A DNA stretch of 32,160 nucleotides from Parcubacteria group bacterium (GTDB lineage Bacteria > Patescibacteriota > JABMPQ01): positions 1 through 32,160 of the forward strand of contig JBDRPV010000052.1 of the NCBI GenBank assembly GCA_043826745.1, read 5' to 3'. Each line of letters opens with the position of its first letter. Position 1 is the stretch's first letter. Positions 1,485 through 30,517 of the stretch are shown piece by piece. Below the pieces are notes generated by a model. That model searched no databases. It saw nothing but the letters and a program-made list of their open reading frames with translations, and was not told the DNA's origin. A program made the translations under genes and the position numbers.

Positions 1485-1494
1485 AAAACGTCAC

Positions 1495-3527: not shown

Positions 3528-3566
3528 TAAACAAAACCAAACGCCAGTGACACTGGCTTTGTCAGA

Positions 3567-3594: not shown

Positions 3595-3600
3595 TACTGT

Positions 3601-3629: not shown

Positions 3630-3676
3630 TGAGTTATGGTCGCTGCCCAGTAATTGCGGCCCATGTTGTGTTTACA

Positions 3677-5152: not shown

Positions 5153-5153
5153 A

Positions 5154-7045: not shown

Positions 7046-7094
7046 ATTAATCAAATACTTGACTTTCCAAACGCATTTGCTAGTCTATAAATTA

Positions 7095-7327
7095 GTAGGT
7101 CTGCAAATACACTGTAGGCCGTTGCGAACCTACTGCGTCAAAAAGTTTTTCAGACGCAGTTCCGTAACTCACTCTGACAGAGTGAGCGAATTGACGCCTT
7201 CCAAAACAAAGGGTTTCCTTTAAAAGGAAATAATATCAATACCTCGAGCTTGAGGTACAAAAGATGCCCTGCCACAGCCTAAATTTATGTATGCTCTTTG
7301 TGAGCTGTGGTCAAAATTTTGGAAGGC
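7095..7327 (+). ncRNA. Candidate structured ncRNA of unknown class, in the 287-bp gap between convergent pth and mltG. Strand is tentative.
   Basis: Six local hairpins: 7095-7101/7128-7134, 7132-7139/7153-7160, 7168-7174/7180-7186, 7214-7230, 7240-7245/7252-7257 and 7271-7277/7304-7310. An 11-bp long-range helix (GCCTTCCAAAA 7196-7206 with TTTTGGAAGGC 7317-7327) encloses the last three and is followed by a T-run (7329-7334). TTGACT at 7059-7064 is a possible -35. Confidence 0.4.
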
Positions 7328-7332
7328 CTTTT

Positions 7333-8400: not shown

Positions 8401-8403
8401 CTT

Positions 8404-9486: not shown

Positions 9487-9601
9487 GTTTTAGTAATTAG
9501 TAACCAACCGTGACTTCCAAGGTAGAGTTGATTATATCATAAAACCCTTTAGTGGCGATGTTGATAGGGTGTGTATTAATAATTATGAGTTTGGTTGCTT
9601 G

Positions 9602-11482
9602 CTATTTCAATAACTCCCGGCAACTTTTACATACTCCTGCAATATTCAAGCCAATTTCATCTTTCAGCAGTTCATTTTTACCATGTTCGATAAATTTGTC
9701 TGGCAAGCCTAGCCGTTTAACCTTCACATTAGACAGATTATTTTCTTCAAGCAGCTCAAGCACCGCTGAGCCCAGTCCACCAGCTAGAACATTTTCTTCG
9801 ACCGTAACTATTTTGCCACATCGAGCGGCCGACAAAATCATCTCTTTGTCTAGCGGCTTGATAAATCTAGTGTTAATAACAGCCGCCTCAATTCCCTCGC
9901 TAGCTAATTTCTCCGCCGCCTGCTCCGCCACAGCTACCATCGAACCTAGAGCAATAATATTTATATCTTTACCCTCCCGCAATGTCTCTCCTCCGCCGAT
10001 TGGCAATGGTTTTATTTCTCTAGCCAATTCTACCCCCAGCCCTTCGCCTTTAGGATAGCGAATAGCTAGCGGGCCCTCTTTATACTGTTCGGCTGTCTTT
10101 AACATTCGCTGGAGCTCATTTTCATCCTTAGGTGCCATTACTACCATGTTGGGGATATGACGTAAGTAGGAAATATCAAAAGCACCGTGATGAGTCGCCC
10201 CATCATCCCCTACCAAGCCCGCCCGATCGAGAACAAATATCACTGGTAATTTTTGCAAGGCGACATCGTGAATTATTTGATCGTAGGCTCGTTGTAAAAA
10301 GGTGGAATAAATCGCTACCACTGGCCGGCAACCTTGGGTCGCCAAACCAGCCGCAAAAGTAACGGCGTGTTCTTCGGCAATTCCGACGTCGAAGAAGCGG
10401 CGGGGGTATTTTTCTTTAAACTTATCCAAACCCGTCCCCTCCGGCATAGCCGCCGTAATCGCGACTATGTCTTTATTACTGTCAGCTAATTTTAATAGCG
10501 TGCTAGAAAAAACTTGAGTATAAGTTTGATTGGGTTGAGTTTTTTTAGTTTTACTCTGCCCATTTTTCACATCAAACGGTGCCGCCCCGTGAAATTTACT
10601 GGCATTTTTTTCTGCATGTTTATACCCTTTGCCCTTTTGGGTAATAACGTGCAACAAGATTGGCCCTTTGACATTTTTAATATTACGGAAAGTTTGCGTT
10701 AATTCCGCCGGATCATGGCCATCCAGAGGACCAAAATAGCGAAAGCCAAGCTCTTCAAACCAAGCTCCGGGAGCGATAATTGACTTTACTCCCCCTTCAA
10801 CAAGTTCCCCGGTACGCAAAGCCAGTCGTCCTAAGCGATTAGGTAACTTGCGGACTAAGTCACGGGCTTTATCTCTGGTCTTAATCACCCGCGGATCGGA
10901 AATTATTTTATTTAGATACGAAGCGACCGCGCCGACGTTCTCCGAAATCGACATCTTATTATCATTGAGAACCACAATCAAATCAGATTGAGCCGTGCCG
11001 ATTTGGTTGAGGCCTTCCAGAGCCAAGCCGCCGGTCAGTGACCCATCGCCGATCACCGCGACGATTTTTTCTTTTTTCTGCTTGAGATCGCGCGCCTTAG
11101 CCATACCCAGAGCGGCCGATAAAGAAGTCGAGGCGTGACCAACCCCAAAAGCGTCATATTTACTCTCTGTTCGCCGCGGGAAACCGGAAATGCCATCCTG
11201 CTGGCGTAAAGTAGCAAATTTATCCTTGCGTCCAGTGATAATTTTATGAGTATAGCACTGGTGGCCAACGTCCCAGACCAGCTTATCTTGCGGGAAATTA
11301 AAGCTTTTATACAAAGCTAAGGTGAGCTCAACTACGCCTAAATTAGAAGCTAAATGCCCGCCCGTGTCAGCTACCGTGCTAATAATCAACTGGCGGATTT
11401 CCTGAGCTAGTCTTTCTAGCTCTTTGACCGACAGCTTTTTAATGTCAGCTGGACTCTCTATTTTATTGAGAAGTTTTGTCAT
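9602..11482 (-). CDS. dxs: 1-deoxy-D-xylulose-5-phosphate synthase
   Basis: About 626 aa with GGHLASNLGVVELT, the GDGSLTGG ThDP motif and the typical Dxs N-terminus LLNKIESPADIKKLS. I took the start at the ATG at 11482; the track start at 11491 is TTG. Confidence 0.95.
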   Translation of the reverse strand: MTKLLNKIESPADIKKLSVKELERLAQEIRQLIISTVADTGGHLASNLGVVELTLALYKSFNFPQDKLVWDVGHQCYTHKIITGRKDKFATLRQQDGISGFPRRTESKYDAFGVGHASTSLSAALGMAKARDLKQKKEKIVAVIGDGSLTGGLALEGLNQIGTAQSDLIVVLNDNKMSISENVGAVASYLNKIISDPRVIKTRDKARDLVRKLPNRLGRLALRTGELVEGGVKSIIAPGAWFEELGFRYFGPLDGHDPAELTQTFRNIKNVKGPILLHVITQKGKGYKHAEKNASKFHGAAPFDVKNGQSKTKKTQPNQTYTQVFSSTLLKLADSNKDIVAITAAMPEGTGLDKFKEKYPRRFFDVGIAEEHAVTFAAGLATQGCRPVVAIYSTFLQRAYDQIIHDVALQKLPVIFVLDRAGLVGDDGATHHGAFDISYLRHIPNMVVMAPKDENELQRMLKTAEQYKEGPLAIRYPKGEGLGVELAREIKPLPIGGGETLREGKDINIIALGSMVAVAEQAAEKLASEGIEAAVINTRFIKPLDKEMILSAARCGKIVTVEENVLAGGLGSAVLELLEENNLSNVKVKRLGLPDKFIEHGKNELLKDEIGLNIAGVCKSCRELLK

Positions 11483-11504
11483 TTTTATCAATAAAATCTT
11501 TTAT

Positions 11505-11652
11505 GGTTGCTCTAGTGTGCCGAGAAAAACCTTGATCGACCGAGCGGCCCGCCCGCTTAGCGATGCCTGCCCGCTTGCAGCGAGCTGGCGGGCGAAGCAG
11601 AGCGGGCGGGCGTGAAAATCCACCGTGTTTTCGAAGCATAGCTAGAGCAGCC
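11505..11652. repeat. GC-rich long-hairpin element, copy A (between uppS stop and dxs start)
   Basis: Outer arms GGTTGCTCTAG (11505-) and CTAGAGCAGCC (-11652) are complementary. The core at 11541-11610 is 70/70 identical to the reverse complement of 14533-14602. The inner stem is GCCCGCCCGCT/AGCGGGCGGGC. Confidence 0.85.
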
Positions 11653-11657
11653 TGCCC

Positions 11658-12353
11658 CTATTTCCCAAATCTTCTTTGTCGCTCACTATAATCATTTAGA
11701 GCTTTATCTAGCTCCTCCTCATCAAAATCTGGCCAAAGGGCGTCGGTAAAATATAGCTCACTGTAGCTGACTTGCCAAAGGAGAAAATTACTAAGACGAC
11801 GCTCGCCGCCAGTTCGGATTAGTAAATCTGGGTCGGGTCGGCCAGCGGTGTAGAGATTTTTTTCAATCATTTCCGGAGTTATCTCACCGCTCGCACCTGA
11901 ACTAATAATTTGCTCAACAGCGCGGGCTATTTCTTCCCGGGCACCATAATTGAGAGCAACGTTGAGATGTATTTTGTTATTATCTTTTAACAGCTCAACA
12001 GCGTCATTAACTTCTTTTTGTAGGTCTTCCGGTAAATAGCTGAGATCTCCGAGAATTTGCAGTGAACAGCCTAGTTTCTGTAATTTTTTACGCTTCTTTC
12101 TAATAAAATAGCCGAGAAGTTTCATTAGACCTTTGATTTCTTCCGGACTGCGATTTCGATTCTCCGAAGAAAAAGCGTAGACGGTAATAATTTTGACACC
12201 ACGGTGGCCACATTGATCGATGACCTTTTCTAACCGCAAAGAACCCTCCCGATGACCTTCGATCGTCGGCACTCCTTTGGCTTTTGCCCACCGTCGATTG
12301 CCGTCCATGATAAAGGCGACGTGGTGAGGGATGTTATTTTTATTTTCAGACAT
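11658..12353 (-). CDS. uppS: Undecaprenyl-diphosphate synthase (cis-prenyltransferase)
   Basis: HVAFIMDGNRRWA and ERRLSNFLLWQVSYSELYF motifs. ATG at 12353. Confidence 0.95.
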   Translation of the reverse strand: MSENKNNIPHHVAFIMDGNRRWAKAKGVPTIEGHREGSLRLEKVIDQCGHRGVKIITVYAFSSENRNRSPEEIKGLMKLLGYFIRKKRKKLQKLGCSLQILGDLSYLPEDLQKEVNDAVELLKDNNKIHLNVALNYGAREEIARAVEQIISSGASGEITPEMIEKNLYTAGRPDPDLLIRTGGERRLSNFLLWQVSYSELYFTDALWPDFDEEELDKALNDYSERQRRFGK

Positions 12354-12443
12354 AATCAAACAATAGTTATTAGTTGTAAGCTTTCAGTAATCAGTTTTCA
12401 GTTGCGATTTTAAGATCACCCTTAAATTATAACTGATAACTGA

Positions 12444-13505
12444 TTACTGACCACTTTTCTTAATTTCTTTCATCAACTCTCCCACAATCTCACTCTCATC
12501 GACTGTCCGCACCACCTCGCCCTTCCGAAAAATCACCCCTTGCCCTCTACCCCCTGCCACCCCAATATCCGCTTCCCGCGCTTCTCCGGGACCATTTACG
12601 ACACAGCCCATGACGGCTATTTTTAGTGGCTTGTCTATCTCAGCCGTCCGCCGCTCTACTTCTTCCGCCAGACCAATAAGATCGATTTCCGTTCGCCCAC
12701 AAGTAGGACAAGAGATAATTTCCACTCCGCGCTCCCGCAAGCCGAGGGATTTGAGAATTTCCCAGCCTACCCGCACTTCCTCAACTGGATCAGCCGTGAG
12801 CGACACCCGGATCGTATCACCGATCCCCCGTGAGAGCAAGCTGCCAATCCCGACAGCTGATTTGATCGTTCCCGACCGAGTTGTGCCCGCTTCGGTGATT
12901 CCAACGTGGAGCGGATAATCGACTTTGTCTGACAGTAACTCATAAGCCTCAATCGTGCGTGGGACGTTGCTAGCTTTAAGTGATACTACAATGTCGTGAA
13001 AATCTAAGTTTTCTAATATTTTAATATGCCGCTGGGCTGATTCGACCATTCCGGCTGCTGTAGCTTGACCTTTATGTTTTGCGAGAATATCTTTCTCCAG
13101 CGAACCAGCATTGACTCCAATACGAATCGGGATATTTTTCTCTTTAGCCTTATCGACGACTGCTTTTACTTTTTCGTTCGAGCCAATATTGCCTGGATTA
13201 ATTCGTAGCTTGTCCACTCCCTGATCAGCACATTCAAGAGCCAGCTTATAATCAAAATGAATATCAGCTACTAGCGGGATATCTATTTGCCGCTTGATTT
13301 CTCCAATGGCTTTGGCTGCTATCATATCGGGCACAGCCACCCGGATCAACTCACAGCCAGCTTCTTCTAGCTGCTTGATCTGAGCAACGGTCGCTTTCAC
13401 GTCCCGGGTATCAGTATTGCACATAGACTGGATAGCCACCGGAGAGCCACTGCCGATTGCTAGGCCGCCGATTTTGATTTTATTGGTTGTTTTTCTAGTA
13501 CTCAT
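12444..13505 (-). CDS. ispG: 4-hydroxy-3-methylbut-2-enyl-diphosphate synthase (GcpE)
   Basis: 353 aa with QSMCNTDT, the [11 protein letters not shown]-barrel part, and the C-terminal Fe-S ligand segments ISCPTCGR and GCVVNGPGE. Confidence 0.95.
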
Positions 13506-13566
13506 AAGTTTTAAATATACGCCAATCGTAGCCCAAGGCTTAAATTAAAACAATATCTCGTGACAA

Positions 13567-14415
13567 CTAGATAGATTTTACTAAAAACACTTGTTTATAT
13601 TGCTGCTTTAATATATTGAAGGCTTTTTCTGTTTCTGATTGACCCTCCCACACCCCAAACACCGACGGTCCACTGCCACTCATTAGACTTCCCAGCGCTC
13701 CTAACGCCAACATTTTCTCCTTTATCTCACCAATCACTGGATGTTTAGGAATTATCGACTTTTCAAAATCATTGTGTAAATTGTCTATCACGTCAGTCAA
13801 ATTACCATCAGTCAAAGTCGCAATCATTCGCTTGGTTTTTTCACTCTCCTGCCCGACCTGCGCTAGATCCAGACTGCCATAAGCTTCCTTGGTCGAAATA
13901 GCAATTTCCGGAGTGACTATTATTATTTGTAGGCTTAAATTATTTTTCAGCGACCGCACCTTTTCTCCCCGTCGCATTCCCAGCGCTGTCCCGCCACTTA
14001 CTAGAAATGGTACGTCCATACCTAGCTCCGCTGCATATTCTCGCAATATTTCATCTGACAATCTTAGCTCCCACATTTCATTCAGAGCTTTGAGCGTCGC
14101 CGCCCCGTCAGTGCTTCCTCCGGCCAAGCCAGCAGCTACCGGGATTTTTTTGTCGATATAGATATCTAGTCCCTTATTGACACCATGTTTCTGGCGAATC
14201 AGCTCGACCGCCTGATAAACAATATTTTTCTCATCGAGGGGAATTTGCTCAGAATTAGAAGTAATCTTAATCTCACCAGATTTATTTTCCTTAAAATCCA
14301 GCTCATCATACAAATCAACTGCCTGGTAAACGGTCGTCAGTTCGTGATAATCATTGGGCAATTTACCTAAGATATCAAGAGTTAGATTAATTTTGGCGGG
14401 GGCTTTGATTATCAT
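13567..14415 (-). CDS. ispE: 4-diphosphocytidyl-2-C-methyl-D-erythritol kinase
   Basis: APAKINLTLDI N-terminus and the GHMP-kinase loop PVAAGLAGGSTDGAA. I moved the start to the ATG at 14415 (MIIKAPAKINL), because the 55-codon upstream extension in the track reads through repeat copy B. Confidence 0.9.
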   Translation of the reverse strand: MIIKAPAKINLTLDILGKLPNDYHELTTVYQAVDLYDELDFKENKSGEIKITSNSEQIPLDEKNIVYQAVELIRQKHGVNKGLDIYIDKKIPVAAGLAGGSTDGAATLKALNEMWELRLSDEILREYAAELGMDVPFLVSGGTALGMRRGEKVRSLKNNLSLQIIIVTPEIAISTKEAYGSLDLAQVGQESEKTKRMIATLTDGNLTDVIDNLHNDFEKSIIPKHPVIGEIKEKMLALGALGSLMSGSGPSVFGVWEGQSETEKAFNILKQQYKQVFLVKSI

Positions 14416-14428
14416 AAATTTACTCTGT

Positions 14429-14638
14429 GGCCATCTTGGCATTTCTCCGAAAACACGTTGGATTTCCCCGGCGTGGAAATCCAACTCCGTGATCGGCCTC
14501 GCTCCCTCCCGATCAGATCGGGAGAACCGTGCCCCGCCCGCTCTGCTTCGCCCGCCAGCTCGCTGCAAGCGGGCAGGCATCGCTAAGCGGGCGGGCCGCT
14601 CGACCGATCAAGGGTTTTCTCTGGCATACCAAGATGGC
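14429..14638. repeat. GC-rich long-hairpin element, copy B (between ispDF stop and ispE start). Composite of the 70-bp core plus the small hairpin module.
   Basis: Outer arms GGCCATCTTGG (14429-) and CCAAGATGGC (-14638) are complementary. The 70-bp core at 14533-14602 is inverted relative to copy A. The small hairpin module at 14497-14535 matches 30436-30474. Confidence 0.85.
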
Positions 14639-14643
14639 TAGTA

Positions 14644-15816
14644 CTATTTAAAAAGTGAAACAACCGCAAAAACCTGAATCCCCTTTCCTTGACCAAAAGT
14701 AGTCAAACTTTCGCCACTGGTAACTGTAATGCCAACATCGCTTGCACTAACTCCCAGCAGATTAGCAATAACCTTTTTCATAGCCGGAAAGTGCTTTTCC
14801 AACTTTGGCTCTTTGCCTTCGATAGCAATCGAAACATTGCCAACTTTGCAACCTGCTCTTTGAACAAAACTCCTAACCACTCTCACATACTCCTGACTAT
14901 CTTTTATTCCCTGCTTCAAACACATTTTATCAGAATAAGTAGCCAGCGAGCCTTTACCAACTGCGCTGCCCAAAGCATTACAGAGAGCGTGCAAAACAAC
15001 GTCTCCATCTGAATTAGCGGAAAATCCGCGGGGATGATTTACCTTTACTCCACCTAAAATCAAAGGTTTCTTACCCGCAAAGCGATGCGAATCCTGCCCC
15101 AAGCCTATTTTCATACCCGTCACTCGCCTTTTCCCTAACACCGCCCGGGCAAAATCTAAATCGCTCGGATAAGTAATTTTAATATTTTCGGCCGAGCAAA
15201 GCACTACTTTTACCCGCTTGCCCAGCCTCTCCACTAAAGACACATCGTCGGTGCCATAAAAACTGTCTTTATAGGCTTTATCAAAAGCCTCGAGAGCTAA
15301 ACCAAATTTAATCGTTTGTGGTGTCTGCATCGCCCATAATTCACGGCGATCCAAGGTTTCCTGGACCAGACCACTAGTACTCACCCGCTTAATTGTATCG
15401 CGCGCTGGTTGGGCACAGACAGCAGCGCCATATTTACCCGCCTCGCGAATCGAATCAGTGATATCTTTCTGACCCACCAGCAAATTACCGCCATTATGAA
15501 TCAATACTAGATCGGACTTACCCGTCCCCGCCTCCCGCAAATAATTCAGTCCCTGGTAAACCGAGTCTTGCCGCTCCTGACCACCTACTACAATCGCCTC
15601 TACCTTGCCAAATTTATATTTATCAACGATCTTCTCCATGGCTACAATATCATTCTGAGCCGTTATGATGATAATTCTCGCGATACTCCGGTGCTGCTCG
15701 AAAGCTTTGAGTGTATGATAAATTACTGGATATTTATCCAGCTTGAGTAGCACCTTATTTTTCCCCTGTCGCATGCGCCGACCTTTGCCAGCTGCGACGA
15801 TGAGAGCGATGTTCAT
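14644..15816 (-). CDS. ispDF: Bifunctional IspD/IspF (MEP cytidylyltransferase / MEcPP synthase)
   Basis: N-terminal IVAAGKGRRM (IspD). C-terminal GLGQDSHRF and SDGDVVLHAL (IspF metal and substrate motifs). 390 aa. Confidence 0.95.
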   Translation of the reverse strand: MNIALIVAAGKGRRMRQGKNKVLLKLDKYPVIYHTLKAFEQHRSIARIIIITAQNDIVAMEKIVDKYKFGKVEAIVVGGQERQDSVYQGLNYLREAGTGKSDLVLIHNGGNLLVGQKDITDSIREAGKYGAAVCAQPARDTIKRVSTSGLVQETLDRRELWAMQTPQTIKFGLALEAFDKAYKDSFYGTDDVSLVERLGKRVKVVLCSAENIKITYPSDLDFARAVLGKRRVTGMKIGLGQDSHRFAGKKPLILGGVKVNHPRGFSANSDGDVVLHALCNALGSAVGKGSLATYSDKMCLKQGIKDSQEYVRVVRSFVQRAGCKVGNVSIAIEGKEPKLEKHFPAMKKVIANLLGVSASDVGITVTSGESLTTFGQGKGIQVFAVVSLFK

Positions 15817-15850
15817 AATGCATTATTAGACTGCTGAGGGATTAATATTA

Positions 15851-15934
15851 GCTTTTTTTCTGGCTTCGAGAACTCGTCGCCCTCCCGGCAAGACCGGGAG
15901 AACTCCTCAGACATCTCTCCGCTGCGAAAAAAGT
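15851..15934. repeat. Hairpin element, copy E (between dxr stop and ispDF start). Diverged relative of copy F.
   Basis: TTTTCTGGCTTCGAGAACTCGTC parallels TTTTCTGGCTGCGGAACTCGTC of copy F. Central hairpin is CTCCCGG-caaga-CCGGGAG (15882-15900). Flanks CTTTTTT/AAAAAAG are partly complementary. Boundaries are approximate. Confidence 0.6.
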
Positions 15935-15953
15935 AACATCCAACCCCTAATTA

Positions 15954-17090
15954 CTAACTAGCACTTAGGACGGTCTCCCCTGCCCACTCGCTGGCCTGCA
16001 TAATTTCCGCAAAATCCGGCTCAGCCACCACCTCGTGCTTATCCATCGCCTCTTTTATTAATCGGGGAATATCCAAATAGCCAATTTTGCCATCCAAAAA
16101 TAGCATGACTGCTGCTTCATTGGCCGCATTTACCACCGCTGGCATGGTTCCTCCTGCCTTGAGAGCCACAAAAGCATAGGCTAAACAGGGAAAAGCCTCT
16201 AAATCCGGCTTCTCAAAATCCAAACGCGCTACCTCGGTTAAGCTAAAATCCTCGGCTGGTGATCTCTTGTGTGCTGGGTAGGTCAAGGCATACTGGATTG
16301 CAATCCGCATATCGTGAGGGCCAAGCTGAGCCTTGATGCTACCATCAGCAAATTCGACGGCTGAATGCACAATACTCTGCGGATGCACCACCACTTCAAT
16401 TTGCTCCGGGGTGACGTCAAATAGCTGATAAGCTTCGATCACTTCTAGCCCCTTGTTCATTAAAGTAGACGAATCGATGGTGATCTTGCCCCCCATACTC
16501 CAGGTGGGATGATCAAGGGCTTGCTCGAGAGTAATATCAACCAGCTCAGCTAGCTTCTTCCCGCGAAATGGTCCACCCGAGCAAGTGATAATAATCTTTT
16601 TGATCTCCTTCTCTTTCTCCCCGCGCAGACACTGCCAAATAGCGGAATGTTCCGAGTCAACTGGATAAATATTTACTTTCTTCTCGCGGGCTAGCTTCAT
16701 AATAATATTTCCAGCGGCTACCAATGATTCCTTATTAGCCAAAGCAACGTCAATGCCGGCCTTGACCGCTATCATCGTTGGTACAATGCCTGCCACTCCC
16801 GAGAGAGCATTCAAAATCAAATCGGCGCCGGCCTCCTTAACCAGTTCTTCGCTGCTGAACAATATTTGTGTTCGGCCTAAATCGGCAGCGACTAATTCAG
16901 CCCGTTTGCCTTCATCTCCTACCACTACATATTCCGGCTCATATTTCTTAATCTGCTCACGCAATAAATCAACCTTAGTATTAGTCGTCAAAGCCACCAC
17001 GTCAAATTCCCCTGGCAGATTATCAACTACTTCCAGGGCTTGAGTGCCAATTGAGCCAGTTGAGCCAAGAACGGCAATTTTTTTCTTCAT
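15954..17090 (-). CDS. dxr: 1-deoxy-D-xylulose-5-phosphate reductoisomerase
   Basis: The LGSTGSIGTQAL NADPH-binding N-terminus, LANKESLV and DSEHSAIWQC are present. ATG at 17090 (MKKKIAVLG). Confidence 0.95.
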   Translation of the reverse strand: MKKKIAVLGSTGSIGTQALEVVDNLPGEFDVVALTTNTKVDLLREQIKKYEPEYVVVGDEGKRAELVAADLGRTQILFSSEELVKEAGADLILNALSGVAGIVPTMIAVKAGIDVALANKESLVAAGNIIMKLAREKKVNIYPVDSEHSAIWQCLRGEKEKEIKKIIITCSGGPFRGKKLAELVDITLEQALDHPTWSMGGKITIDSSTLMNKGLEVIEAYQLFDVTPEQIEVVVHPQSIVHSAVEFADGSIKAQLGPHDMRIAIQYALTYPAHKRSPAEDFSLTEVARLDFEKPDLEAFPCLAYAFVALKAGGTMPAVVNAANEAAVMLFLDGKIGYLDIPRLIKEAMDKHEVVAEPDFAEIMQASEWAGETVLSAS

Positions 17091-17106
17091 AAATATCACG
17101 TTGTTG

Positions 17107-17204
17107 GAGGGTAGACATTATTCTTTTTCTGGCTGCGGAACTCGTCCCGATAAGATCGGGACTCAAACACCCGCAGCGGGCGAAAAAGAACAATGTCTAC
17201 CCTC
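17107..17204. repeat. Hairpin element, copy F (between ispH stop and dxr start)
   Basis: The 23-nt outer arms at 17107-17129 and 17182-17204 are complementary, with a single A/C position that would be a U-G pair in the minus-strand (operon) transcript. Inner stem is CTGCGG/CCGCAG. Central hairpin is GTCCCGAT-aag-ATCGGGAC (17144-17162). Confidence 0.8.
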
Positions 17205-17210
17205 ATGTTG

Positions 17211-18050: not shown

Positions 18051-18064
18051 GGCTAGATTATATT

Positions 18065-18126
18065 TACCCTGAGCCTGCCGCGCCCGCTGCGCTCTCGCGC
18101 AAGCGAGGCGGGCGGGTCTAAGGGTA
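18065..18126. repeat. Short GC-rich hairpin element, copy G (14 nt upstream of the ispH start)
   Basis: Arms TACCCTGAG (18065-18073) and CTAAGGGTA (18118-18126) enclose CCTGCCGCGCCCGCTGCGCTC..GCGAGGCGGGCGGG. This shares the CCCGCCCGC/GCGGGCGGG theme of copies A and B. Confidence 0.6.
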
Positions 18127-18175
18127 GTTCGACGGGCTCACCATTAACAAAATCACCCTAGCACAAATTTGCCAT

Positions 18176-18224
18176 AAAAAAAAGCGGGTGACAGGTGATG
18201 CACGAAGCATGTACCTGTACCCGC
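18176..18224 (-). terminator. Strong intrinsic terminator after the GC-rich ORF
   Basis: The minus strand reads GCGGGTACAGGTACATGCttcgtGCATCACCTGTCACCCGC followed by 8 T. The stem is about 16 bp and imperfect. Confidence 0.8.
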
Positions 18225-18248
18225 TAAGATAAGATTTGAGCAGATGTT

Positions 18249-19793
18249 TTAGAGGATCCTTTCGGATCCGTTGGAGGGATGAGTGCGGGTTTCGAACTCC
18301 CGCGCCTTGCCCTGCCGATATCGGGCGCAGCCGTAAAGCTCGAAGCAGCGCCAACCGCAGCTCGGCTTGCAATACGGCGAGCTCTGCCGATGGCATGTCT
18401 GAGACTTGTCGAACGGCTGACCCAGCAAAGTCAGAACCGTGATCACATATACGTCCTGCGCCGTAAGGCTGCAAGGCGGCATGTCCGGGTTGGTGTTCCA
18501 AGCGTTGCCGCAGGCCGTTTTGAACGGCGCCAGGAAGATGGCGCTCAGTACTTTGCCATTGAGGTCAAAGTACACGTTCCCGACCTGTTCCAGCGGATCG
18601 ATCAGCTCTGCGCGCCCATCCGGGTCACTCAGCCTGATCTCCGCCGCTCTAAGCGCCGCCGCCACCCGGTTGAGAACCATCTTCGAACGGTCCCGCTCCG
18701 TGTGTACCTGGCTTCCCTCCTTGGTTCTGGCCGTCCAGCTCCCCACGGAGACGTTGAAGTGGGTGTCGGATCGGCGGTGCTGGATGATGACCGTCTCGAC
18801 CACCGTCAGCTTGCGCTGAGCAGCGTACTCGTTGGCCTTCATCCGCGCGACCGAGCCAAAGCGATACGACTCGGACTGGCCCGCGACCACAACACACTTG
18901 GACTCCACCCACCTCACCCCATTGGCGAAAACCACCTGGGGAATGTCCAGCACGCGGAACTGGGCCGTTTCAAAGTCCCGCAGCGCCAGCTTCCACTCCA
19001 CCTCCATCCGATCCAACGCCAGCCGGCACTCATCTTGGAACTCCTTGCGCTGCTGCTTGCGAACCTTGGTTAGCTTGAGACCAGCCACCATCGGGTCCAT
19101 GAGGAAGTAGTTTTCGTTAGCGATGTCGGGACTGGCCGTATTGGTCCGCTTGGCCTTGTCCTGGGTCAGAGCGAAAACGCCCTTGAAGGCGTAAACGCAC
19201 TGCACGACAACCTTGAGGGGGTTGTTCCGATACAGCAAGTTCCAGCCAGTGATCAGGTTCCGGAGGGTGCGGGCCGTGTTGGGCCAGGAGGAGTTCCGAT
19301 AGTCCGGATCGCGAGCGATCGCGGTGCCCTGCTTATCCTGGGCGGCGATCACCTGGGCGATGCCGAGGAACCACTCGTACCCCTTCTTCAAGCCGACCAG
19401 CTCCGTCAGAATCTCGATGGTGCAGAGACTGTCCTGGCGCCCGTGGTGGTCGAGAAACCCGCCACCACAGTCAACGAAGAGGTAGCCGATCTGCTCGAGC
19501 TCCTGGGCCAAGCGACCCTGCTCAATCAGTCTCACCACGTCAAGCTTGGCCTCCTTGACCCTCTTCTCGTCCTGCCAATCCTCAATGCGCAAAGAACCTG
19601 AAGAGATCACCTTGAGGCGGTACTTTTTCTCGAGAGCGATCCGGCAAACAAAGCCGAGGGCGATGATCACCAGTGAAACCAAACACTCAATGTCCGGCCA
19701 GAAGTGGATGACTGCTGTGTGAAACTCTCCTTTTTCGGTTTGGGGTTTGACTACCTGAAACTTCTTGCTTTTCTTGTTCTTGTCCTTGGCCAC
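18249..19793 (-). CDS. Hypothetical 514-aa protein of foreign, high-GC composition. Weak DHH/MYG1-like phosphoesterase motifs in the N-terminal half.
   Basis: The uninterrupted 1.5-kb ORF has strong GC3 bias. GTG start is preceded by GGAGG. HFWPDIECLVS and FVDCGGGFLDHHG resemble the H-x-x-x-D-E and VDxGG...DHH motifs of the DHH/UPF0160 (MYG1) superfamily. The rest is unrecognised. The last ~50 aa are Cys/Arg-rich. Confidence 0.7.
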   Translation of the reverse strand: MAKDKNKKSKKFQVVKPQTEKGEFHTAVIHFWPDIECLVSLVIIALGFVCRIALEKKYRLKVISSGSLRIEDWQDEKRVKEAKLDVVRLIEQGRLAQELEQIGYLFVDCGGGFLDHHGRQDSLCTIEILTELVGLKKGYEWFLGIAQVIAAQDKQGTAIARDPDYRNSSWPNTARTLRNLITGWNLLYRNNPLKVVVQCVYAFKGVFALTQDKAKRTNTASPDIANENYFLMDPMVAGLKLTKVRKQQRKEFQDECRLALDRMEVEWKLALRDFETAQFRVLDIPQVVFANGVRWVESKCVVVAGQSESYRFGSVARMKANEYAAQRKLTVVETVIIQHRRSDTHFNVSVGSWTARTKEGSQVHTERDRSKMVLNRVAAALRAAEIRLSDPDGRAELIDPLEQVGNVYFDLNGKVLSAIFLAPFKTACGNAWNTNPDMPPCSLTAQDVYVITVLTLLGQPFDKSQTCHRQSSPYCKPSCGWRCFELYGCARYRQGKAREFETRTHPSNGSERIL

Positions 19794-19906
19794 TTTTTCC
19801 TCCAGTATCGGTAAAGCCCGCCTTCATCGACAGACTTGTTTTCGTGCGATTTTTATCTGCTCAAATTGTAAATGAGCGCACTTCGCCACCATTGGCAAAG
19901 CCCCAT

Positions 19907-19935
19907 ATTTTAACATTTATTGTATTATATGTCAA
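19907..19935 (-). promoter_or_regulatory. Consensus-like promoter for the GC-rich ORF: TTGACA-17 nt-TAAAAT
   Basis: The reverse strand reads TTGACAtataatacaataaatgtTAAAAT. It implies a 5' UTR of about 105 nt before the GTG at 19793. Confidence 0.6.
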
Positions 19936-20064: not shown

Positions 20065-21714
20065 TTATTTCCGCCGATACAACCGTACTTTTTCTTCGTC
20101 GCCTATCCCCTGGTAGCTATACTCGTGAACAATTGTAAAATTATCGGAGAAAAAGCTGCCCAACTCGTCCGCTTCTTCCGCCGCCACCTCGTAAGCTTGC
20201 AACGCCCACGCCAACGGCCCTTGATCGCCAGTTTTGGTAATTACATAGTCAGCTGCCAACAAAGACTGACGCCAATCATGGACTTTGAGCTGCCGGCTCA
20301 ACTGATAGTTGGCCTTCAGTCCTTTTAACCCGCCCTGATATTGAACCTGATTAGCTGTTAAGAAAATACTATTGGGTACCACGGCGATCATACTGACTGC
20401 CTCTGGGTCGGATTTATCCTCAACAATCTCCGCCACCAGCTGTGACAATTGAGTATGATACTGCGTGGGATAAGTGAAACCATACTGCGGATCTTTTTCG
20501 GTAACCTCCCGCAAACCGTAGACTTGCATAGCCGCTGGCCAAGCTTGAAAGTCTGTTCGCACGATCGGCACCGCCCACGACGTTTGCAGCCAGAATACAC
20601 CGGCGATTAATAGACTGACAGTAGCTGCCCCCCAGCGCAGATATTTATTCTTGAACCGGAAAACAAACATGGCGATAATTAACGCCAGCAACGGATAGAG
20701 CGGGAGAAAAAAGCGACTTTCTTTGGCGTAGAGATAAAAAGTGAGAAAAAGATAGCTCAACGTTAATACAGAAAATAGGAAAATGAATTTACGATCGCGA
20801 CGGATGGCGAGAGTTATGACCGCCGCTAAGAAAATTATCATTTGCGGCCAGCTTAGACCAGCGCTGATCGTCTTGAAATAATAAGTGAAATTGCTCCAAC
20901 TGATGAGCTTGGTAAACTTCACAAAAAATTCATTGGCGTTAGTCTCCTCGCCGACTGCTAGAACTGTCTCGTAATGAAAGTAATACCAAGGACCAGCAAT
21001 TAGGACGAATATAAGGAAAGCTAAGGCTCCATTGCGCAGGACTGTTTTGAGCAGCGGATAATCCTTTTTCTTGCGACCAATAAAATAGTAAGCCAAATAG
21101 ACTAGAATTAGTGGCGCGATAAAAGCGGGCAGCATAAATTTGGTCAGAAAAGCTAAACCTACTGCCAAGCCAAAAAGTAGCGACCATTTAGTTTCGGAAA
21201 AAAACTTAGTTTTTAACAAGCAAAAAAAGCTCAAGCCAAACATGGCCATCAGCGGATAATCCAAATCGTATGTACGAGAGAAATGAGCTGTCAGCGGAAA
21301 CAGGGCTAATAAAATACTGGCGAAAAAAGCAGCTTTATCGGAGCCCGTGAAAATCTTGGTGATAGCAAAAGTAGCCAGTTGGGCGATCACTAGAAACAAC
21401 AACAAAGAATACTGCGGCACGTCTACTAGATGGCCAAAAAATAAATAAAAAACACCCGTGACCAAGTAGGTGAAAAAAGGATAATGCGTTTCTTGGCTAA
21501 TTAATAAAGTCTCGAGTTGGCCACTGAGAACTAGCTCGGAGTCATAAACGCTACGATAAGAATGCCCGGCCATATCCCAGAGCGGCGGGCTTTGATCTTG
21601 GATAATCCAAACGATGTTGGTGGCCACTAAGACAACCAATAATCCCAAAAACAACCAGAGGGTTCTGGCTGTAAATATTCGGGGCAGTTTAAGAAGGAAA
21701 TTTGTATTCGGCAA
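20065..21714 (-). CDS. Polytopic membrane glycosyltransferase, GT39/ArnT/PMT_2-like
   Basis: 549 aa with about 11-12 hydrophobic helices followed by a soluble C-terminal ~150 aa. The architecture and composition are typical of lipid-linked-sugar (polyprenyl-phosphate) dependent GT-C enzymes. Apparent TTG start. Confidence 0.55.
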   Translation of the reverse strand: MPNTNFLLKLPRIFTARTLWLFLGLLVVLVATNIVWIIQDQSPPLWDMAGHSYRSVYDSELVLSGQLETLLISQETHYPFFTYLVTGVFYLFFGHLVDVPQYSLLLFLVIAQLATFAITKIFTGSDKAAFFASILLALFPLTAHFSRTYDLDYPLMAMFGLSFFCLLKTKFFSETKWSLLFGLAVGLAFLTKFMLPAFIAPLILVYLAYYFIGRKKKDYPLLKTVLRNGALAFLIFVLIAGPWYYFHYETVLAVGEETNANEFFVKFTKLISWSNFTYYFKTISAGLSWPQMIIFLAAVITLAIRRDRKFIFLFSVLTLSYLFLTFYLYAKESRFFLPLYPLLALIIAMFVFRFKNKYLRWGAATVSLLIAGVFWLQTSWAVPIVRTDFQAWPAAMQVYGLREVTEKDPQYGFTYPTQYHTQLSQLVAEIVEDKSDPEAVSMIAVVPNSIFLTANQVQYQGGLKGLKANYQLSRQLKVHDWRQSLLAADYVITKTGDQGPLAWALQAYEVAAEEADELGSFFSDNFTIVHEYSYQGIGDEEKVRLYRRK

Positions 21715-21825: not shown

Positions 21826-23367
21826 TTATTCAACACACTTCGGCTCTTGAAAATTGTGTTTTAAATTTTTAGCACACAACTTCTTTCCATCACCATTCTT
21901 ACCGCCATACATAATAAGCTCAGCTCTTTCCCATGCTCTTTTCCGATACTTACAAGGCAAATGATCATCTTTAGACATGGTTAAAAGAAAAATTGCGTGC
22001 GATCCATAAGTACTTTCAAAATCCTTATCCATCATCTCTCCCTGTGTTTTTTTAACCGGTATATTGCAATTTTTATCATATTTATGAAGACTATCTGGAT
22101 ATTTGTGATTGACTTCATGGTACAATATCCCGGTATTCTGAACTAAGTTGTATGGTGTAATAGGATTAATGTTCAACATTTTTTTACAGATATAGACTCG
22201 TTTCTGGTCTTTCTTACTATAAAATGCCGCCACCTGGTCGCCCTTGCACATTTCAAGCTCTGTAGACCCATGAAGATCATGTTTTGTCATATCAAAAAAA
22301 TCAACCTCATGATCCACCATAAACTTGTAAGCAAAATGTTGTTCGTTAAATAACTGGTTAGGCACCTTTAACTTTGTGGAGGCAGATCTCAGTAACGTCA
22401 GATATTGAATCATGGGCCCAAGATTGTCATTATAAACTTTATTATTTGATTTTACTTCATTGAAACAAAACAAGGGCACGCCAAAATATTCAATTGATTC
22501 ACATTGGTTGCTATAAATTTTACTATCTAAATAGGAAAAATTTTGTTTACTAAAATCAGGATTAACGAAAAGTACAGATCTATCTTGGCTTTTGCTATTA
22601 ATTATATTTTCTTTGTTGTTCAACACTTCCGTGTGGTTGGGAAATAAAGAGCTTAACAACAGATAAAAGTCCGACCCAGAATTATATTTGCTAGCCAAAT
22701 AAATACTCTCGCAGGTATTCCCTAAGGTATGCTTAGAATCGAGAAATACAAGACTATTCGTATCCGGTATATTGACATAACAGGCACTAATTACTTCTTT
22801 GGGACTCTCCACGCAATCCAGGTCTCTTATATCGGTAATATATTTTTGTTGATCCAATTCTACTGTCATTCCCTTAAGCGCATCTCCGGGGTTACAATTC
22901 AATACCCTGCCCCGACGAGGATTTTCTTCTCGACCCTCGTCTCCTTCGCATATCTTTGTTATTCTAGTTACTTTGCCAGTTGCAGGATACAAATTGAAAC
23001 CAGTCATCAGCTTACCGGAACAATTATCTGGACCAAAGCTAATATACTGATGGGGATTCTCATCACCGACAAAACCAGACTCTATTAAACCATCAGGGCT
23101 TTCGTTCGAACCAAAACATTGCAAACCAATGTTAGTTATAGACTCCCAGTTGTGCCTTCCAGATATACCAGCAGCAAGACTGCTTCCAGGGCATTTTAAA
23201 TATTGAAGGTCAATAAATTCATCAGCAACCCTTTTTTCTTCCCAGAGTGGAAGAAGTAAAAAAGCTATCCCTCCGACAGCCAGAACCGCCAAAACGGCTA
23301 CAGCTACCTTAGTATTAGTAATTGTTTTTGTTGTTGTTTTGATGAGTTTCTTGACTATTTTTTGCAA
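21826..23367 (-). CDS. Hypothetical membrane-anchored, Cys-rich secreted protein with an HExxH motif
   Basis: 513 aa in a very AT-rich gene. N-terminal TM is VAVAVLAVLAVGGIAFLLL. Three Cys-bounded ~25-aa modules are present, and YHEVNHKYPDSLH lies in the C-terminal half. Apparent TTG start. Confidence 0.6.
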   Translation of the reverse strand: MQKIVKKLIKTTTKTITNTKVAVAVLAVLAVGGIAFLLLPLWEEKRVADEFIDLQYLKCPGSSLAAGISGRHNWESITNIGLQCFGSNESPDGLIESGFVGDENPHQYISFGPDNCSGKLMTGFNLYPATGKVTRITKICEGDEGREENPRRGRVLNCNPGDALKGMTVELDQQKYITDIRDLDCVESPKEVISACYVNIPDTNSLVFLDSKHTLGNTCESIYLASKYNSGSDFYLLLSSLFPNHTEVLNNKENIINSKSQDRSVLFVNPDFSKQNFSYLDSKIYSNQCESIEYFGVPLFCFNEVKSNNKVYNDNLGPMIQYLTLLRSASTKLKVPNQLFNEQHFAYKFMVDHEVDFFDMTKHDLHGSTELEMCKGDQVAAFYSKKDQKRVYICKKMLNINPITPYNLVQNTGILYHEVNHKYPDSLHKYDKNCNIPVKKTQGEMMDKDFESTYGSHAIFLLTMSKDDHLPCKYRKRAWERAELIMYGGKNGDGKKLCAKNLKHNFQEPKCVE

Positions 23368-23432
23368 AAATATAAATTAATAACTTCTATTTCAAAAACC
23401 CAATTGGCAGGGGCTCGTGAAAGACGTTAGAA

Positions 23433-23738
23433 CTATAATCCAGCAGCAGAGTGAGTATGTTTATGTTCCTGACCTCCTATACATTCAACTCTATCGACGG
23501 TTATAATTCTAAAAGTATTTGAATTTATCGTTATTTTAATGTGATTTTTCTCATTCAAGACATAAAAGTTTTTCCCTATTTTTAAAAAAAACTTTTCTTC
23601 AGTTTCTTTCAAAATTTTAAGTATGAATTTTTCAATTTGTCCTCTTGAAAGATTGATATTAAGTTTTTTATTTATTCTGCCGTAAACAAGTTCTGTATAA
23701 CAAATGCTATTTAAAATCTCCTGTTTGTTTATGTTCAT
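23433..23738 (-). CDS. Small DUF3781-like protein
   Basis: 101 aa. CYTELVYGRINKKLNI ... KIGKNFYV ... ITINSNTFRIITV matches my recollection of the DUF3781 pattern (YT..a..RI.rNL ... GKNwYv ... itvNa.syTIITAH). This has not been verified by a search. Confidence 0.5.
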   Translation of the reverse strand: MNINKQEILNSICYTELVYGRINKKLNINLSRGQIEKFILKILKETEEKFFLKIGKNFYVLNEKNHIKITINSNTFRIITVDRVECIGGQEHKHTHSAAGL

Positions 23739-23803
23739 AATATTTTTCCTATAAGTCTTTGTCTAGGTTAACTTTATCAGATTTTACCCTACCCCTCAAC
23801 TCA

Positions 23804-24985
23804 CTATATATTTTCCTCCTTAATAAACATAAACAAGATGGGCACGACGAACATTAAACCTATCCCAATCATGTAGGCCGTGTTGATACTATATAAATCA
23901 GCCAAGTATCCCACAAGCGGTATAGCGACAGCAATTCCAATTTGACTGACGAAACTATTCATTGAGTTTATCGTAGCCCGATAGCTAGAAGGAATACTTT
24001 TATTTATAAGATAATCGATAATGGTGTTCCGTATGCCAAACAGAAGCGACGTGCTTGCCAGCAATCCAGCCGCTAAATATTTGTGCGTTAAGGTTGCAAT
24101 AATACCCAAAGCTGCCGAGATTATTATCGATACTATCAGTGTCTTCTTGTTACCAAACTTTTCGGAAACACTATGGGCAATATAAAAACTAATGGCAGAT
24201 AATCCAAAGACTAAAGCGGAAAAATATCCAAAATATTCAATCGGGATTTCTTTATACTTAAAAAATAATGGCTTCAGTTGATGTAAGCTCTCTCCCAGAG
24301 ACATTAGCAAAAGCCAACCGATGACTAATATTAATAATTGCTTACTTTTAATTATAACTTTACTAGCGGCTTTGATATGCCCAAGTATACTAGTGTCACT
24401 CGGCTTCTGGTATTTTGGTTCCTTTAAAAATAACACCAGAATGAAAGCAATAGCCATTGGGATAAAAGTATAGGCGACTGTGGCTTCAAGTGACACCTTA
24501 GCTATGTAGCCACCTATTATTGAGCCAATTGAGGCTCCGAGCGGCCAAAGGGAATATAATGTTCCAATAACTTTTTTATAGTATTTATCTTTACCTTCTT
24601 CCTTAAGAGTATCATATAAAAACGCTTGGTGGTTGCCACTGCCTAGCGCCATAGCAAAACCATTAATTATTGCGTAGCCGATAAACATCACTATGCTGCC
24701 ACCAATAAGTAAGAAAATTAAAGCAATAAAAGTAATCACAAAATCAATAATAAGTACTTTCTTTCTGCCAAAGATATCTGACAAAGCACCGGTGGGAATT
24801 TCAAAAATCGCCACCGCAATTGCCTCAACCGCAAAGATAATTGCCACATTCTTAATTGAAAATAGGTCTTGCTCAAAATACAAAGCAAGTATTGGTAAAA
24901 AAAACAACACGCCACTAAATAATCCAATGGCGTACATCAGCGGTATGTTGCGAGATTTGATGTTGTATTTTTTTAGGAAAAACAT
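23804..24985 (-). CDS. MFS transporter
   Basis: 393 aa with about 12 TM segments and the motif-A-like GALSDIFGRKKVL between TM2 and TM3. Confidence 0.8.
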   Translation of the reverse strand: MFFLKKYNIKSRNIPLMYAIGLFSGVLFFLPILALYFEQDLFSIKNVAIIFAVEAIAVAIFEIPTGALSDIFGRKKVLIIDFVITFIALIFLLIGGSIVMFIGYAIINGFAMALGSGNHQAFLYDTLKEEGKDKYYKKVIGTLYSLWPLGASIGSIIGGYIAKVSLEATVAYTFIPMAIAFILVLFLKEPKYQKPSDTSILGHIKAASKVIIKSKQLLILVIGWLLLMSLGESLHQLKPLFFKYKEIPIEYFGYFSALVFGLSAISFYIAHSVSEKFGNKKTLIVSIIISAALGIIATLTHKYLAAGLLASTSLLFGIRNTIIDYLINKSIPSSYRATINSMNSFVSQIGIAVAIPLVGYLADLYSINTAYMIGIGLMFVVPILFMFIKEENI

Positions 24986-25061: not shown

Positions 25062-25072
25062 ATTTAAACTAC

Positions 25073-25143
25073 AGGGGTGGAGAGAATCGAACTCCCGCCT
25101 CAGGTTTTGGAGACCCAAATTCTACCACTAAACTACACCCCCA
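25073..25143 (-). tRNA. trnW: tRNA-Trp (anticodon CCA), no encoded 3' CCA
   Basis: The reverse strand reads GGGGGTGTAGTTTAGTGGTAGAATTTGGGTCTCCAAAACCTGAGGCGGGAGTTCGATTCTCTCCACCCCTG. It folds as a cloverleaf with a 7-bp acceptor stem (G1-U72), anticodon loop CTCCAAA and T-loop TTCGATT. Hand folded. Confidence 0.85.
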
Positions 25144-25223: not shown

Positions 25224-25379
25224 CTACTTCGTCTCCTTATGCGCCGTATGTTTGCCACAAAACGGACAGTACTTCATCAGCTCCAGCCGATCTTTGATGT
25301 TCTTTTTATTTTTCCGCGAGTGGTAATTAACATTTTTACACTCGGTGCACTCGAACTTGATCATGCTATCTTGAGACAT
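25224..25379 (-). CDS. rpmG: 50S ribosomal protein L33
   Basis: Too short for the ORF track. My translation is [51 protein letters not shown], showing the L33 zinc-ribbon pattern CxxC...CxxC and the KET tail. Confidence 0.9.
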
Positions 25380-30367: not shown

Positions 30368-30517
30368 GTGGTCATTCAGTCTATCACGAAGACACGACTG
30401 TTTTTCCCAGCGAGAAAAACAGTCTCGGGTTTTGACCTCGCTCTCTCCCGATCAGAATCGGGAGAACCATGCCCGCTCGGCCAAAACACGGTCTTCTTAG
30501 ACAGACCGAATGACCAC
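30368..30517. repeat. Long-hairpin element, copy D, starting on the nucleotide after the stop codon of the 1030-aa gene
   Basis: Outer arms GTGGTCATTC (30368-30377) and GAATGACCAC (30508-30517) are complementary, and the arms extend further with two A/C positions. The internal module at 30436-30474 matches 14497-14535 with 2 substitutions and 1 indel. Confidence 0.8.

Follow-up and report, generated by a model that had tools for sequence, protein, structure and literature searches.

Enzymes of the DHH superfamily share four metal-binding Asp/His motifs and a two-domain alpha/beta fold, and several of its described families come close to the gene treated here. MYG1 (UPF0160, PF03690), which is of the DHH type and is found across the eukaryotes, was shown experimentally to be a 3'-5' RNA exonuclease whose function requires the DHH motif (PMC6582341). 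The nanoRNases and pAp phosphatases of the NrnA/Rv2837c (CnpB)/Pde2 group combine the DHH domain with DHHA1, the yeast exopolyphosphatase PPX1 and the family II pyrophosphatases (PPases) combine it with DHHA2, and GdpP and PggH are phosphodiesterases of cyclic and linear dinucleotides. We describe a 514-aa open reading frame (ORF), here called X, in a 32,160-nt stretch of contig JBDRPV010000052.1 (assembly GCA_043826745.1, Parcubacteria group bacterium). This stretch, referred to as the window, is a co-directional housekeeping part of a genome of the candidate phyla radiation (CPR), a group in which most lineage-specific proteins lack an assigned fold. Gene X is real and is a complete transcription unit with promoter, structured leader, ORF and terminator (Table 1). 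We consider it somewhat probable that the whole of the following account applies, namely that X codes for a DHH phosphoesterase, was transferred from GC-rich Patescibacteria, and has had its alleles swapped through conserved flanks.

The single sequence of X gave no usable match in Pfam, NCBIfam, PADLOC, PHROGs or the PDB, and a word-indexed protein search, run with the single sequence or with the family alignment, returned only the query itself. An exhaustive HMMER search of 1.84 billion representatives recovered 57 proteins at E<=1e-3, nine of them at E<=1e-30, so the gene is not the orphan that the initial annotation of this DNA, made from the letters alone, had taken it for. Most family members are 400-560 aa long, those with names are called 'hypothetical protein' from metagenome-assembled genomes (MAGs) of Parcubacteria or Patescibacteria, and, unlike the eukaryote-wide MYG1, every member with a named source belongs to the Patescibacteria (CPR). 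None of 40 aligned members matched any Pfam family at E<=1, DHHA1 and DHHA2 included, and the family profile found just two chance matches (E ~1) among the PDB sequences. In this 40-sequence alignment, from which all conservation figures are taken, the near-invariant columns (>=90%) are H30, D34, D108, D115, H117 and D153, which lie in motif I (H30-x3-D34-x-E36), motif II (D108), motif III (D115-H116-H117) and motif IV (D153). The conserved blocks of the N-terminal part read HTLVxHxxPDLE, GYLFxDCGGGxLD[QH]HG and SxNDxxG, and are followed by TPHTPRHLRNxIxGWNL, EWxxA, GxSxSxRFGxVxR, ADVxIQF and FGNxFRxNP. The stretches HFWPDIE, FVDCGGGFLDHHG and AAQDKQG, from which a DHH-type phosphoesterase had been guessed, occur in protein X and fall on the near-invariant columns.

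The guess gained support at the level of fold. An AlphaFold2 model built on the family alignment had a mean predicted local distance difference test score (pLDDT) of 86.4, a predicted TM-score (pTM) of 0.87 and 336 residues at pLDDT >=90; from the single X sequence the pLDDT was 34 and no usable model was obtained. The top 22 Foldseek matches of the model in the PDB all belong to the DHH superfamily (E 6e-5 to 2.5e-2). PPX1 (2qb6, E 6e-5) and Rv2837c/NrnA (5jju, 9e-4) come first, then family II PPases and the catalytic domain of GdpP, and PggH, RecJ-like proteins and Cdc45 are among the other matches. The alignments to the two-domain PPX1, NrnA and GdpP run over the full length (370-500 columns). 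The best matches among the viral models of BFVD (E ~5e-5 to 1e-3) were phage and giant-virus proteins, several of which are named 'exopolyphosphatase' or DHH phosphohydrolase. Protein X has all four metal-binding Asp/His motifs of the superfamily and its model has the two-domain alpha/beta fold. From the model and the motifs, we conclude that protein X belongs to the DHH superfamily and stands outside every family described in it. Since the DHH motifs are conserved, catalysis is very probably retained, and with D34, D108, D115-H116-H117 and D153 intact, hydrolysis of a phosphodiester or phosphoanhydride bond is expected. X would encode a two-domain, divalent-metal-dependent DHH phosphoesterase of a small family without a Pfam model, acting by the usual two-metal DHH mechanism. 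What the locus would add to the superfamily is a new DHH family whose catalytic centre is intact and which has an unusual helical insertion, together with a Cys-rich tail in the members of this clade. The conserved residues of the linker and helical region are P171, R175, W184-N185 and E264/W267, and the family motifs of the C-terminal domain are SxSxRFG..R317, R382 and G429-N-x-F-x-x-NP. The Cys-rich tail is limited to a subset of the family (P0001-4, P0009, P0025 and P0026) and, judged by its cysteines, may bind zinc.

The likeness to MYG1 seen in the initial annotation proved suggestive, and membership in that family did not follow from it. X resembles MYG1 in the order of its motifs (H..D-x-E, D-x-G-G close before D-H-H, SS-x-x-L, a D-x-x-G motif IV and 'WN'), in having two domains and in its broadly similar size. 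HHalign of the family against a shallow MYG1 alignment of 14 vertebrate and lancelet sequences gave a probability of 41.9% and an E-value of 2.7e-4 over 97-100 columns that cover motifs II-IV, SS-x-x-L and the WN segment. The human MYG1 sequence used as query found MYG1 proteins annotated with PF03690, the closest with 95% identity. The family hidden Markov model (HMM) scored this query at 0.8 bits, and PF03690 matched none of the 40 members at E<=1. Unlike in MYG1, motif III reads D-Q-H in most members of the X family, FGNxFRxNP stands in place of the C-terminal FVHxxGFIGG, and a helical region is added, as is the Cys-rich tail in this clade; the N- and C-terminal parts of the two families do not align. 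As far as the sequences go, MYG1 is a suggestive lead.

The bacterial and yeast enzymes resemble X mainly in their fold. X has the two-domain DHH architecture and the motif I (H-x-x-P-D-x-[DE]) of the NrnA group, to which it is aligned over its full length by Foldseek (5jju, E 9e-4, probability 0.95; also 4ls9, 5ipp and 8iu7), but it has no sequence match to the PDB chains of that group and lacks PF01368/PF02272, GGGH and the RxRxR site. It is also ~150-200 residues longer than these enzymes because of its helical insertion, and with TM-scores of 0.2-0.3 the likeness is one of fold only. With PPX1 and the family II PPases it shares the metal-binding Asp/His motifs, whereas the identity is 8-12%, the TM-scores are low and the substrate-binding motifs of DHHA2 are unrecognisable. 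GdpP and PggH are DHH proteins as well, and their catalytic domains match X (5xsi and 7d62, E 0.01-0.1), but these matches are weaker, and PAS, GGDEF and transmembrane modules are missing from X. Among the listed neighbours of X, none was noticed that codes for a diadenylate cyclase.

The GC content of ORF X is 0.592, with 0.583, 0.400 and 0.792 at the first, second and third codon positions (GC1, GC2 and GC3), while the window outside it has a GC content of 0.430. The GC3 of the other large ORFs, 23 in number, ranges from 0.235 to 0.502. Compared by codon position with the other ORFs, the excess of X is almost wholly synonymous. Windows of 400 nt within the ORF range from 0.535 to 0.637, the sliding-window profile climbs and drops at both of its ends, and the spacer upstream has a GC content of 0.37. 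The computed profile confirms the sharp step at the ORF boundaries that had been claimed from hand counts, and its direction; the hand-counted values of the neighbours had been too low (0.448 and not ~0.38 for the upstream glycosyltransferase gene, 0.366 and not ~0.28 for the gene of 513 aa). With a GC3 of 0.79 and its own promoter, leader and terminator, X is rightly described as a compositionally foreign, self-contained cassette, and the promoter, the GGAGG-GTG start and the terminator with eight U were each found as described. The relative synonymous codon usage (RSCU) of X shows no likeness to that of the window genes (r = -0.09) and agrees with that of genes from high-GC loci of Patescibacteria (r = 0.85-0.87). 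The G-ending four-fold codons CCG, ACG and GCG are preferred and CGT, GGT and GCT are avoided, and almost all two-fold codon preferences are inverted with respect to the window genes. X has the donor-like composition and codon usage of a horizontally acquired gene, and because its codon usage matches that of high-GC relatives and not that of its own neighbours, transfer is the best reading.

The positions of the relatives are consistent with this. In six loci X follows mraZ, rsmH and an ftsL-like gene, in some of them with a clpB-like gene interposed, and mraY lies directly downstream in four of the six (mraY-DUF192-rplU). Five of these six loci have sequence available; their hosts have a GC content of 0.52-0.65 and X is at near-host GC. 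Elsewhere the gene neighbours RNase Y and HU, precedes a UvrD-like helicase or lies among hypothetical genes. In the low-GC hosts (the window and the loci L009, L004, L011, L020 and L022) it never occupies the mraZ-mraY position, and its GC3 exceeds that of the neighbours by 0.13-0.36. In the window X is followed by ispH, dxr, ispDF, ispE, ispG, uppS and dxs, which make up the complete methylerythritol phosphate (MEP) pathway together with undecaprenyl-diphosphate synthase, and upstream of it lie a GT-C glycosyltransferase gene with PMT_2/PMT matches, an AT-rich block and tRNA-Trp. The initial annotation had considered that X could turn out to belong to a well-known family with a conserved housekeeping context in relatives; such a context exists (mraZ-rsmH-ftsL-like-X-mraY), and the well-known family does not. 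Judged from these sequences, the simplest account would be that GC-rich lineages inherited X vertically and that low-GC lineages received it by transfer. GC-rich to mid-GC Patescibacteria usually keep X in the cluster of division and cell-wall genes (mraZ-rsmH-ftsL-like-X-mraY), where it stands at near-host GC. A copy with its own promoter and leader would have passed, most plausibly in this direction, into a low-GC Parcubacteria lineage, and would now head the MEP/uppS isoprenoid cluster with its donor-like codon usage retained. Imported genes are more often AT-rich; a GC-rich transfer between CPR lineages would run opposite to this, in a unit that brings its own promoter and structured leader.

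By IspH, the closest genome match of the window is a 'Parcubacteria group bacterium' MAG with 90% amino-acid identity. A homologue lies directly upstream of ispH in the Parcubacteria MAG JABMPQ010000075 (536 aa; loci L001/L009, with L010 as another assembly of the same MAG) and in L004 (502 aa), and X was therefore not, as first supposed, recently acquired by this genome alone. A fourth allele is found in L011, where the downstream context differs. The four proteins form one clade and all have the Cys-rich tail, and the terminator and the ispH-proximal spacer are common to the window, L009 and L004. No empty site upstream of ispH was found among the three to four genomes of the clade, both related genomes with the ispH context carrying X, and a metagenome scan with IspH brought up no further close relatives. 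Between the window and L009, protein X has 41% amino-acid identity, a non-synonymous divergence (dN) of 0.62 and a four-fold difference at identical amino acids of 0.65 (saturated), as against 83-90%, 0.05-0.10 and 0.36-0.46 for ispH, dxr, ispDF and ispE. The flanks are conserved, with 85% nucleotide identity in the leader and 94% in the terminator, the latter being kept at 85% in L004. The three syntenic alleles are about equidistant (41-46% amino-acid identity), although the host of the window is a far closer relative of the L009 host than of the L004 host, and the L009 host is likewise distant from the latter. The divergence is spread over all domains, and a mosaic test along the protein found no recently exchanged block. 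The evolutionary rate of X in GC-rich lineages exceeds that of its neighbours only ~1.5-fold, and in the low-GC clade its GC3 stays at 0.72-0.80. Since relaxed selection cannot raise synonymous divergence and amelioration would lower GC3, allele replacement is favoured. It is most likely, as judged from the sequences of very few genomes, that in one lineage or more a divergent allele took the place of the ORF via the conserved flanks, and the alleles at this locus would have been exchanged by recombination through these flanks. Conserved flanks around deeply divergent alleles are uncommon for a cytoplasmic enzyme.

Several observations weigh against the proposed account, both in its enzymatic and in its evolutionary part. 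The global TM-scores of the fold matches are low, 0.1-0.37 in the PDB and <=0.46 for the viral models, which limits the precision of the fold assignment; the low values may stem from the two domains moving about a hinge and from the helical insertion of ~110 residues. Profile searches of Pfam, NCBIfam and the PDB revealed no link at the sequence level to any characterised DHH family. The canonical GGGH motif of DHHA1 is not present in X, where FGNxFRxNP is conserved instead, and position 116 of motif III, which is H in the window protein and completes D-H-H, is Q in most relatives. Also in five of the six 'native' high-GC loci, which are mostly division and cell-wall (dcw) loci, the GC3 of X exceeds that of the neighbours, by 0.06-0.10 (0 in L005), and over all loci it does so in 11 of 12 (Wilcoxon p ~0.001), so that a force other than transfer may raise the GC content. 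The low-GC alleles share an AT-rich promoter and leader, which implies long residence in low-GC genomes, during which amelioration should have eroded GC3.

The last two of these observations also speak for an alternative that we consider unlikely, in which X is a native, highly expressed gene, not acquired horizontally, whose GC3 is held up by selection for G/C-ending codons or for properties of the mRNA, or by gene conversion that favours GC at a hot spot of recombination. Its GC3 is at or above that of the neighbours in all 12 loci, the high-GC ones included, and has not decayed in the low-GC clade despite the old, shared AT-rich promoter and leader. The near-consensus extended -10 promoter and the strong Shine-Dalgarno sequence, present in the window and in most family loci examined, would fit high expression. 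The sole ribosomal-protein gene of the window, rpmG (ribosomal protein L33, 51 codons, 25224-25379, minus strand), which fell below the length cut-off of the ORF list, has a GC3 of 0.63. This is the highest value among the host genes there and hints that genes with high expression may favour G/C-ending codons to some extent. On the other hand, the codon usage of X is a near mirror image of that of its host (r = -0.09) and matches that of high-GC Patescibacteria (r = 0.86), and the preference for CCG, ACG and GCG with avoidance of CGT, GGT and GCT looks like mutational bias and not like translational selection. Moreover, rplU beside X is not elevated in GC3 in three loci, and X is absent from the mraZ-mraY position in every low-GC host. 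Still less likely, in our estimate, is that X is a conflict gene with a role in defence, in anti-defence or in the regulation of defence signalling, e.g., a cyclic di- or oligonucleotide phosphodiesterase, carried on a mobile cassette and with alleles under diversifying or balancing selection. A self-contained cassette of foreign composition that is patchy and rare (57 clusters among 1.84 billion representatives), alleles that diverge far more than their flanks, and the dinucleotide-degrading enzymes GdpP, PggH and NrnA among the fold matches would all be expected of such a gene, and all other assemblies break just upstream of X. The defence role on which the initial annotation had speculated found no backing, as the only PADLOC match, Cas6b2, is a chance one (13.6 bits, E 0.012) and no relatives occur in phage, plasmid or viral-contig collections. 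There is no partner sensor or effector nearby, where the neighbours are ispH and the GT-C glycosyltransferase gene, dN/dS is 0.32-0.42 and not above 1, and many relatives conserve the housekeeping position between the ftsL-like gene and mraY.

The remaining alternatives concern the integrity and the mobility of the unit. A small mobile element delimited by the inverted repeat 18222-18245 / 19855-19878, of which X would be the cargo or the transposase, appears very improbable. The repeat does bracket X (24 nt, 79% complementary, with an 11-nt perfect core shared with L009), but it is not kept in L004 or L011, the duplex energies of the untranslated regions (UTRs) are no better than those of shuffled controls, no target-site duplications and no second copy were found in the window, and the predicted fold is that of DHH enzymes and not of a transposase or recombinase. 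Pairing of the 5' and 3' UTRs through the same two segments was rejected for its lack of conservation in L004 and L011 and its shuffle-level energies. An assembly chimera, in which a GC-rich fragment of another organism would have been joined into a low-GC contig, could explain the abruptness of the GC step and the fact that the junction between X and the upstream GT-C gene is bridged by this window only. It is scarcely credible, given that the succession of promoter, leader, GC-rich ORF, terminator and ispH recurs in independent NCBI, JGI and Logan assemblies, with homologous AT-rich leader and terminator flanks. The junction from the ORF through the terminator to ispH is found in the independent assemblies L001/L009, L010 and L004, and their agreement excludes a chimera on the ispH side. 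The contigs of L004, L009, L010 and L011 stop 176-287 nt upstream of the X gene, which suggests a junction that is variable between strains or hard to assemble.

For the substrate of the proposed phosphoesterase, our tentative first choice, made by analogy with MYG1 and NrnA, would be short RNA or nucleotides, degraded in the manner of a 3'-to-5' exonuclease or nanoRNase, even though we would give it less than an even chance. A phosphoanhydride such as polyphosphate or pyrophosphate is an unlikely substrate, and a cyclic or linear dinucleotide a somewhat less likely one. If X were simply another nanoRNase, the result would be a routine gain in annotation. To our knowledge, it is still not settled which enzyme deals with undecaprenyl diphosphate from de novo synthesis at the cytoplasmic face of the membrane. 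Improbable as we consider it, X could be a cytoplasmic pyrophosphatase-type DHH enzyme of the undecaprenyl-phosphate cycle, e.g., one that removes a phosphate from freshly made undecaprenyl diphosphate, or from a polyprenyl or sugar-nucleotide diphosphate related to it. Such a role would explain why X touches this cycle in two unrelated contexts, directly upstream of mraY in four loci of GC-rich to mid-GC Patescibacteria and, in the low-GC clade, heading the dxs-uppS-MEP cluster beside a GT-C (PMT_2) gene, and it fits with an exopolyphosphatase and pyrophosphatases as the best fold matches. The position of X by mraY or by MEP/uppS and GT-C genes weakly suggests a link to the polyprenyl-phosphate carrier cycle, and its repetition next to lipid-carrier genes (mraY, MEP/uppS, GT-C) offers a concrete, if speculative, substrate hypothesis.

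The expression signals of X are conserved within the low-GC clade. Its promoter is kept in the alleles of L009, L004 and L011, and an own promoter of the form TTGACA/TTGACC-17-TAnnnT is present at nine of the 11 other family loci examined, in most cases together with a TG extended -10, whereas at the other two, L020 and L017, the pattern scan detected no such promoter. The promoters of the family imply leaders of 100-140 nt with hairpins; besides the low-GC clade, the leaders considered were those of L005, L007, L019, L018, L021 and L017. In the four alleles of the low-GC clade (leaders at L009 180-287, L004 85-191 and L011 68-176, in addition to the window), the hairpin proximal to the ribosome-binding site, at 19837-19814 in the window, has a conserved GRUNAA hexaloop on a 7-bp core stem that is 100% paired in all four and has nine pairs when the window sequence is folded by itself. 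At two pairs of the stem both partners are exchanged, with weak statistics (n=4; scores as high as the observed one came from 44 of 500 shuffles). The hairpin could be a candidate cis-regulatory or protein-binding element. No Rfam family matched the cassette or its surroundings, even with the threshold set at E<=1, and across clades the leaders are too divergent for an alignment to give a convincing consensus structure. The terminator hairpin has a folding energy of -26.3 kcal/mol (z = -5.4), and none of 200 shuffles folds as well. The gene upstream of X has a separate terminator at 20030-20011.

Table 1. Gene X, its predicted protein domains and its expression signals in the window
Feature	Position	Strand	Description
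ORF X	18249..19793	minus	514 aa, GTG start; predicted DHH-superfamily phosphoesterase, family without Pfam model
Predicted N-terminal DHH catalytic domain, residues ~23-160	19314..19727	minus	pLDDT >90; motif columns near-invariant
Conserved linker and long helical region, residues ~161-277	18963..19313	minus	confident helices H177-187, H192-217, H246-274
Predicted C-terminal alpha/beta domain, residues ~278-460	18414..18962	minus	from alignment, model and Foldseek
Cys-rich C-terminal tail, residues ~465-500	18294..18401	minus	C467, C475, C479, C483, C489; low model confidence
Sigma-70-type promoter TTGACA-17-TAAAAT	19907..19935	minus	TG extended -10; 11/12 consensus positions
5' leader, ~105 nt	19794..19901	minus	three predicted hairpins, 19901-19880, 19877-19859 and 19837-19814 (folding)
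GGAGG Shine-Dalgarno sequence	19803-19799	minus	5 nt ahead of the GTG start
Intrinsic terminator	18176..18225	minus	hairpin 18225-18184 with UUCG-containing loop, then U8 at 18183-18176 (folding)

The surroundings of X in the window are rich in genes for lipid carriers and the cell envelope, which are concentrated at 423-17099 and 20065-21714 and comprise a dgkA-like kinase, LytR-CpsA-Psr, mltG/YceG, a ManC-like nucleotidyltransferase, dxs, uppS, the MEP pathway and the GT-C glycosyltransferase. The AT-rich block at 21826-24985, whose genes have a GC content of 0.27-0.37, encodes the 513-aa ORF without Pfam match, a DUF3781 protein and a major facilitator superfamily (MFS) transporter, and adjoins tRNA-Trp (25071-25143, minus strand). 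It looks like a second, AT-rich island, and a search for attachment (att) sites beside the tRNA gene found no att-like repeat.

Several spacers of the isoprenoid cluster contain palindromic or repeated elements. Between the promoter region and the start of ispH lies a GC-rich imperfect palindrome of ~75 nt (18055-18135; CCCGCCCGCC...GCGGGCG), which L009 and L004 lack in the corresponding spacer. Two GC-rich palindromic copies of 89 nt (11522-11610 and 14533-14621), in opposite orientation and 97% complementary, occupy the dxs-uppS and ispE-ispDF spacers, and a further repeat pair of 70 nt, 71% identical, is found at 14448-14517 and 30387-30456. These 89-nt and 70-nt repeats look like miniature intergenic repeats similar to repetitive extragenic palindromes (REP) or miniature inverted-repeat transposable elements (MITE) in a low-GC genome. 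A related element of ~100 nt is common to the ispDF-dxr (15817-15953) and dxr-ispH (17100-17210) spacers and has a further match in a spacer of the related MAG (L001 4191-4301); it may represent a leader present in several copies, an attenuator or a mobile element.

The idea of a diversity-generating retroelement acting on X was tried and rejected, since no template or variable repeat of any part of X was found in the window, and the window ORFs scanned against Pfam included no reverse-transcriptase family. Among the family loci, L020 has a bAvd-type gene for an accessory protein of such retroelements at 13320-13679, ~5 kb from its X homologue, and L021 has a DnaB gene at 13912-15692 with an intein that carries a LAGLIDADG endonuclease. 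Five tandem repeats of ~156 nt lie at 29582-30242 of the window, inside the gene for a 1030-aa FG-GAP repeat protein (27275-30367). In L009, a GC-rich gene of 613 aa without Pfam match (7251-9092, minus strand; GC 0.62, GC3 0.83) and a 126-aa ORF (6728-7108, minus strand) are inserted between ispE and ispG, where the window has nothing, which means that X is not the only GC-rich insert of this lineage.

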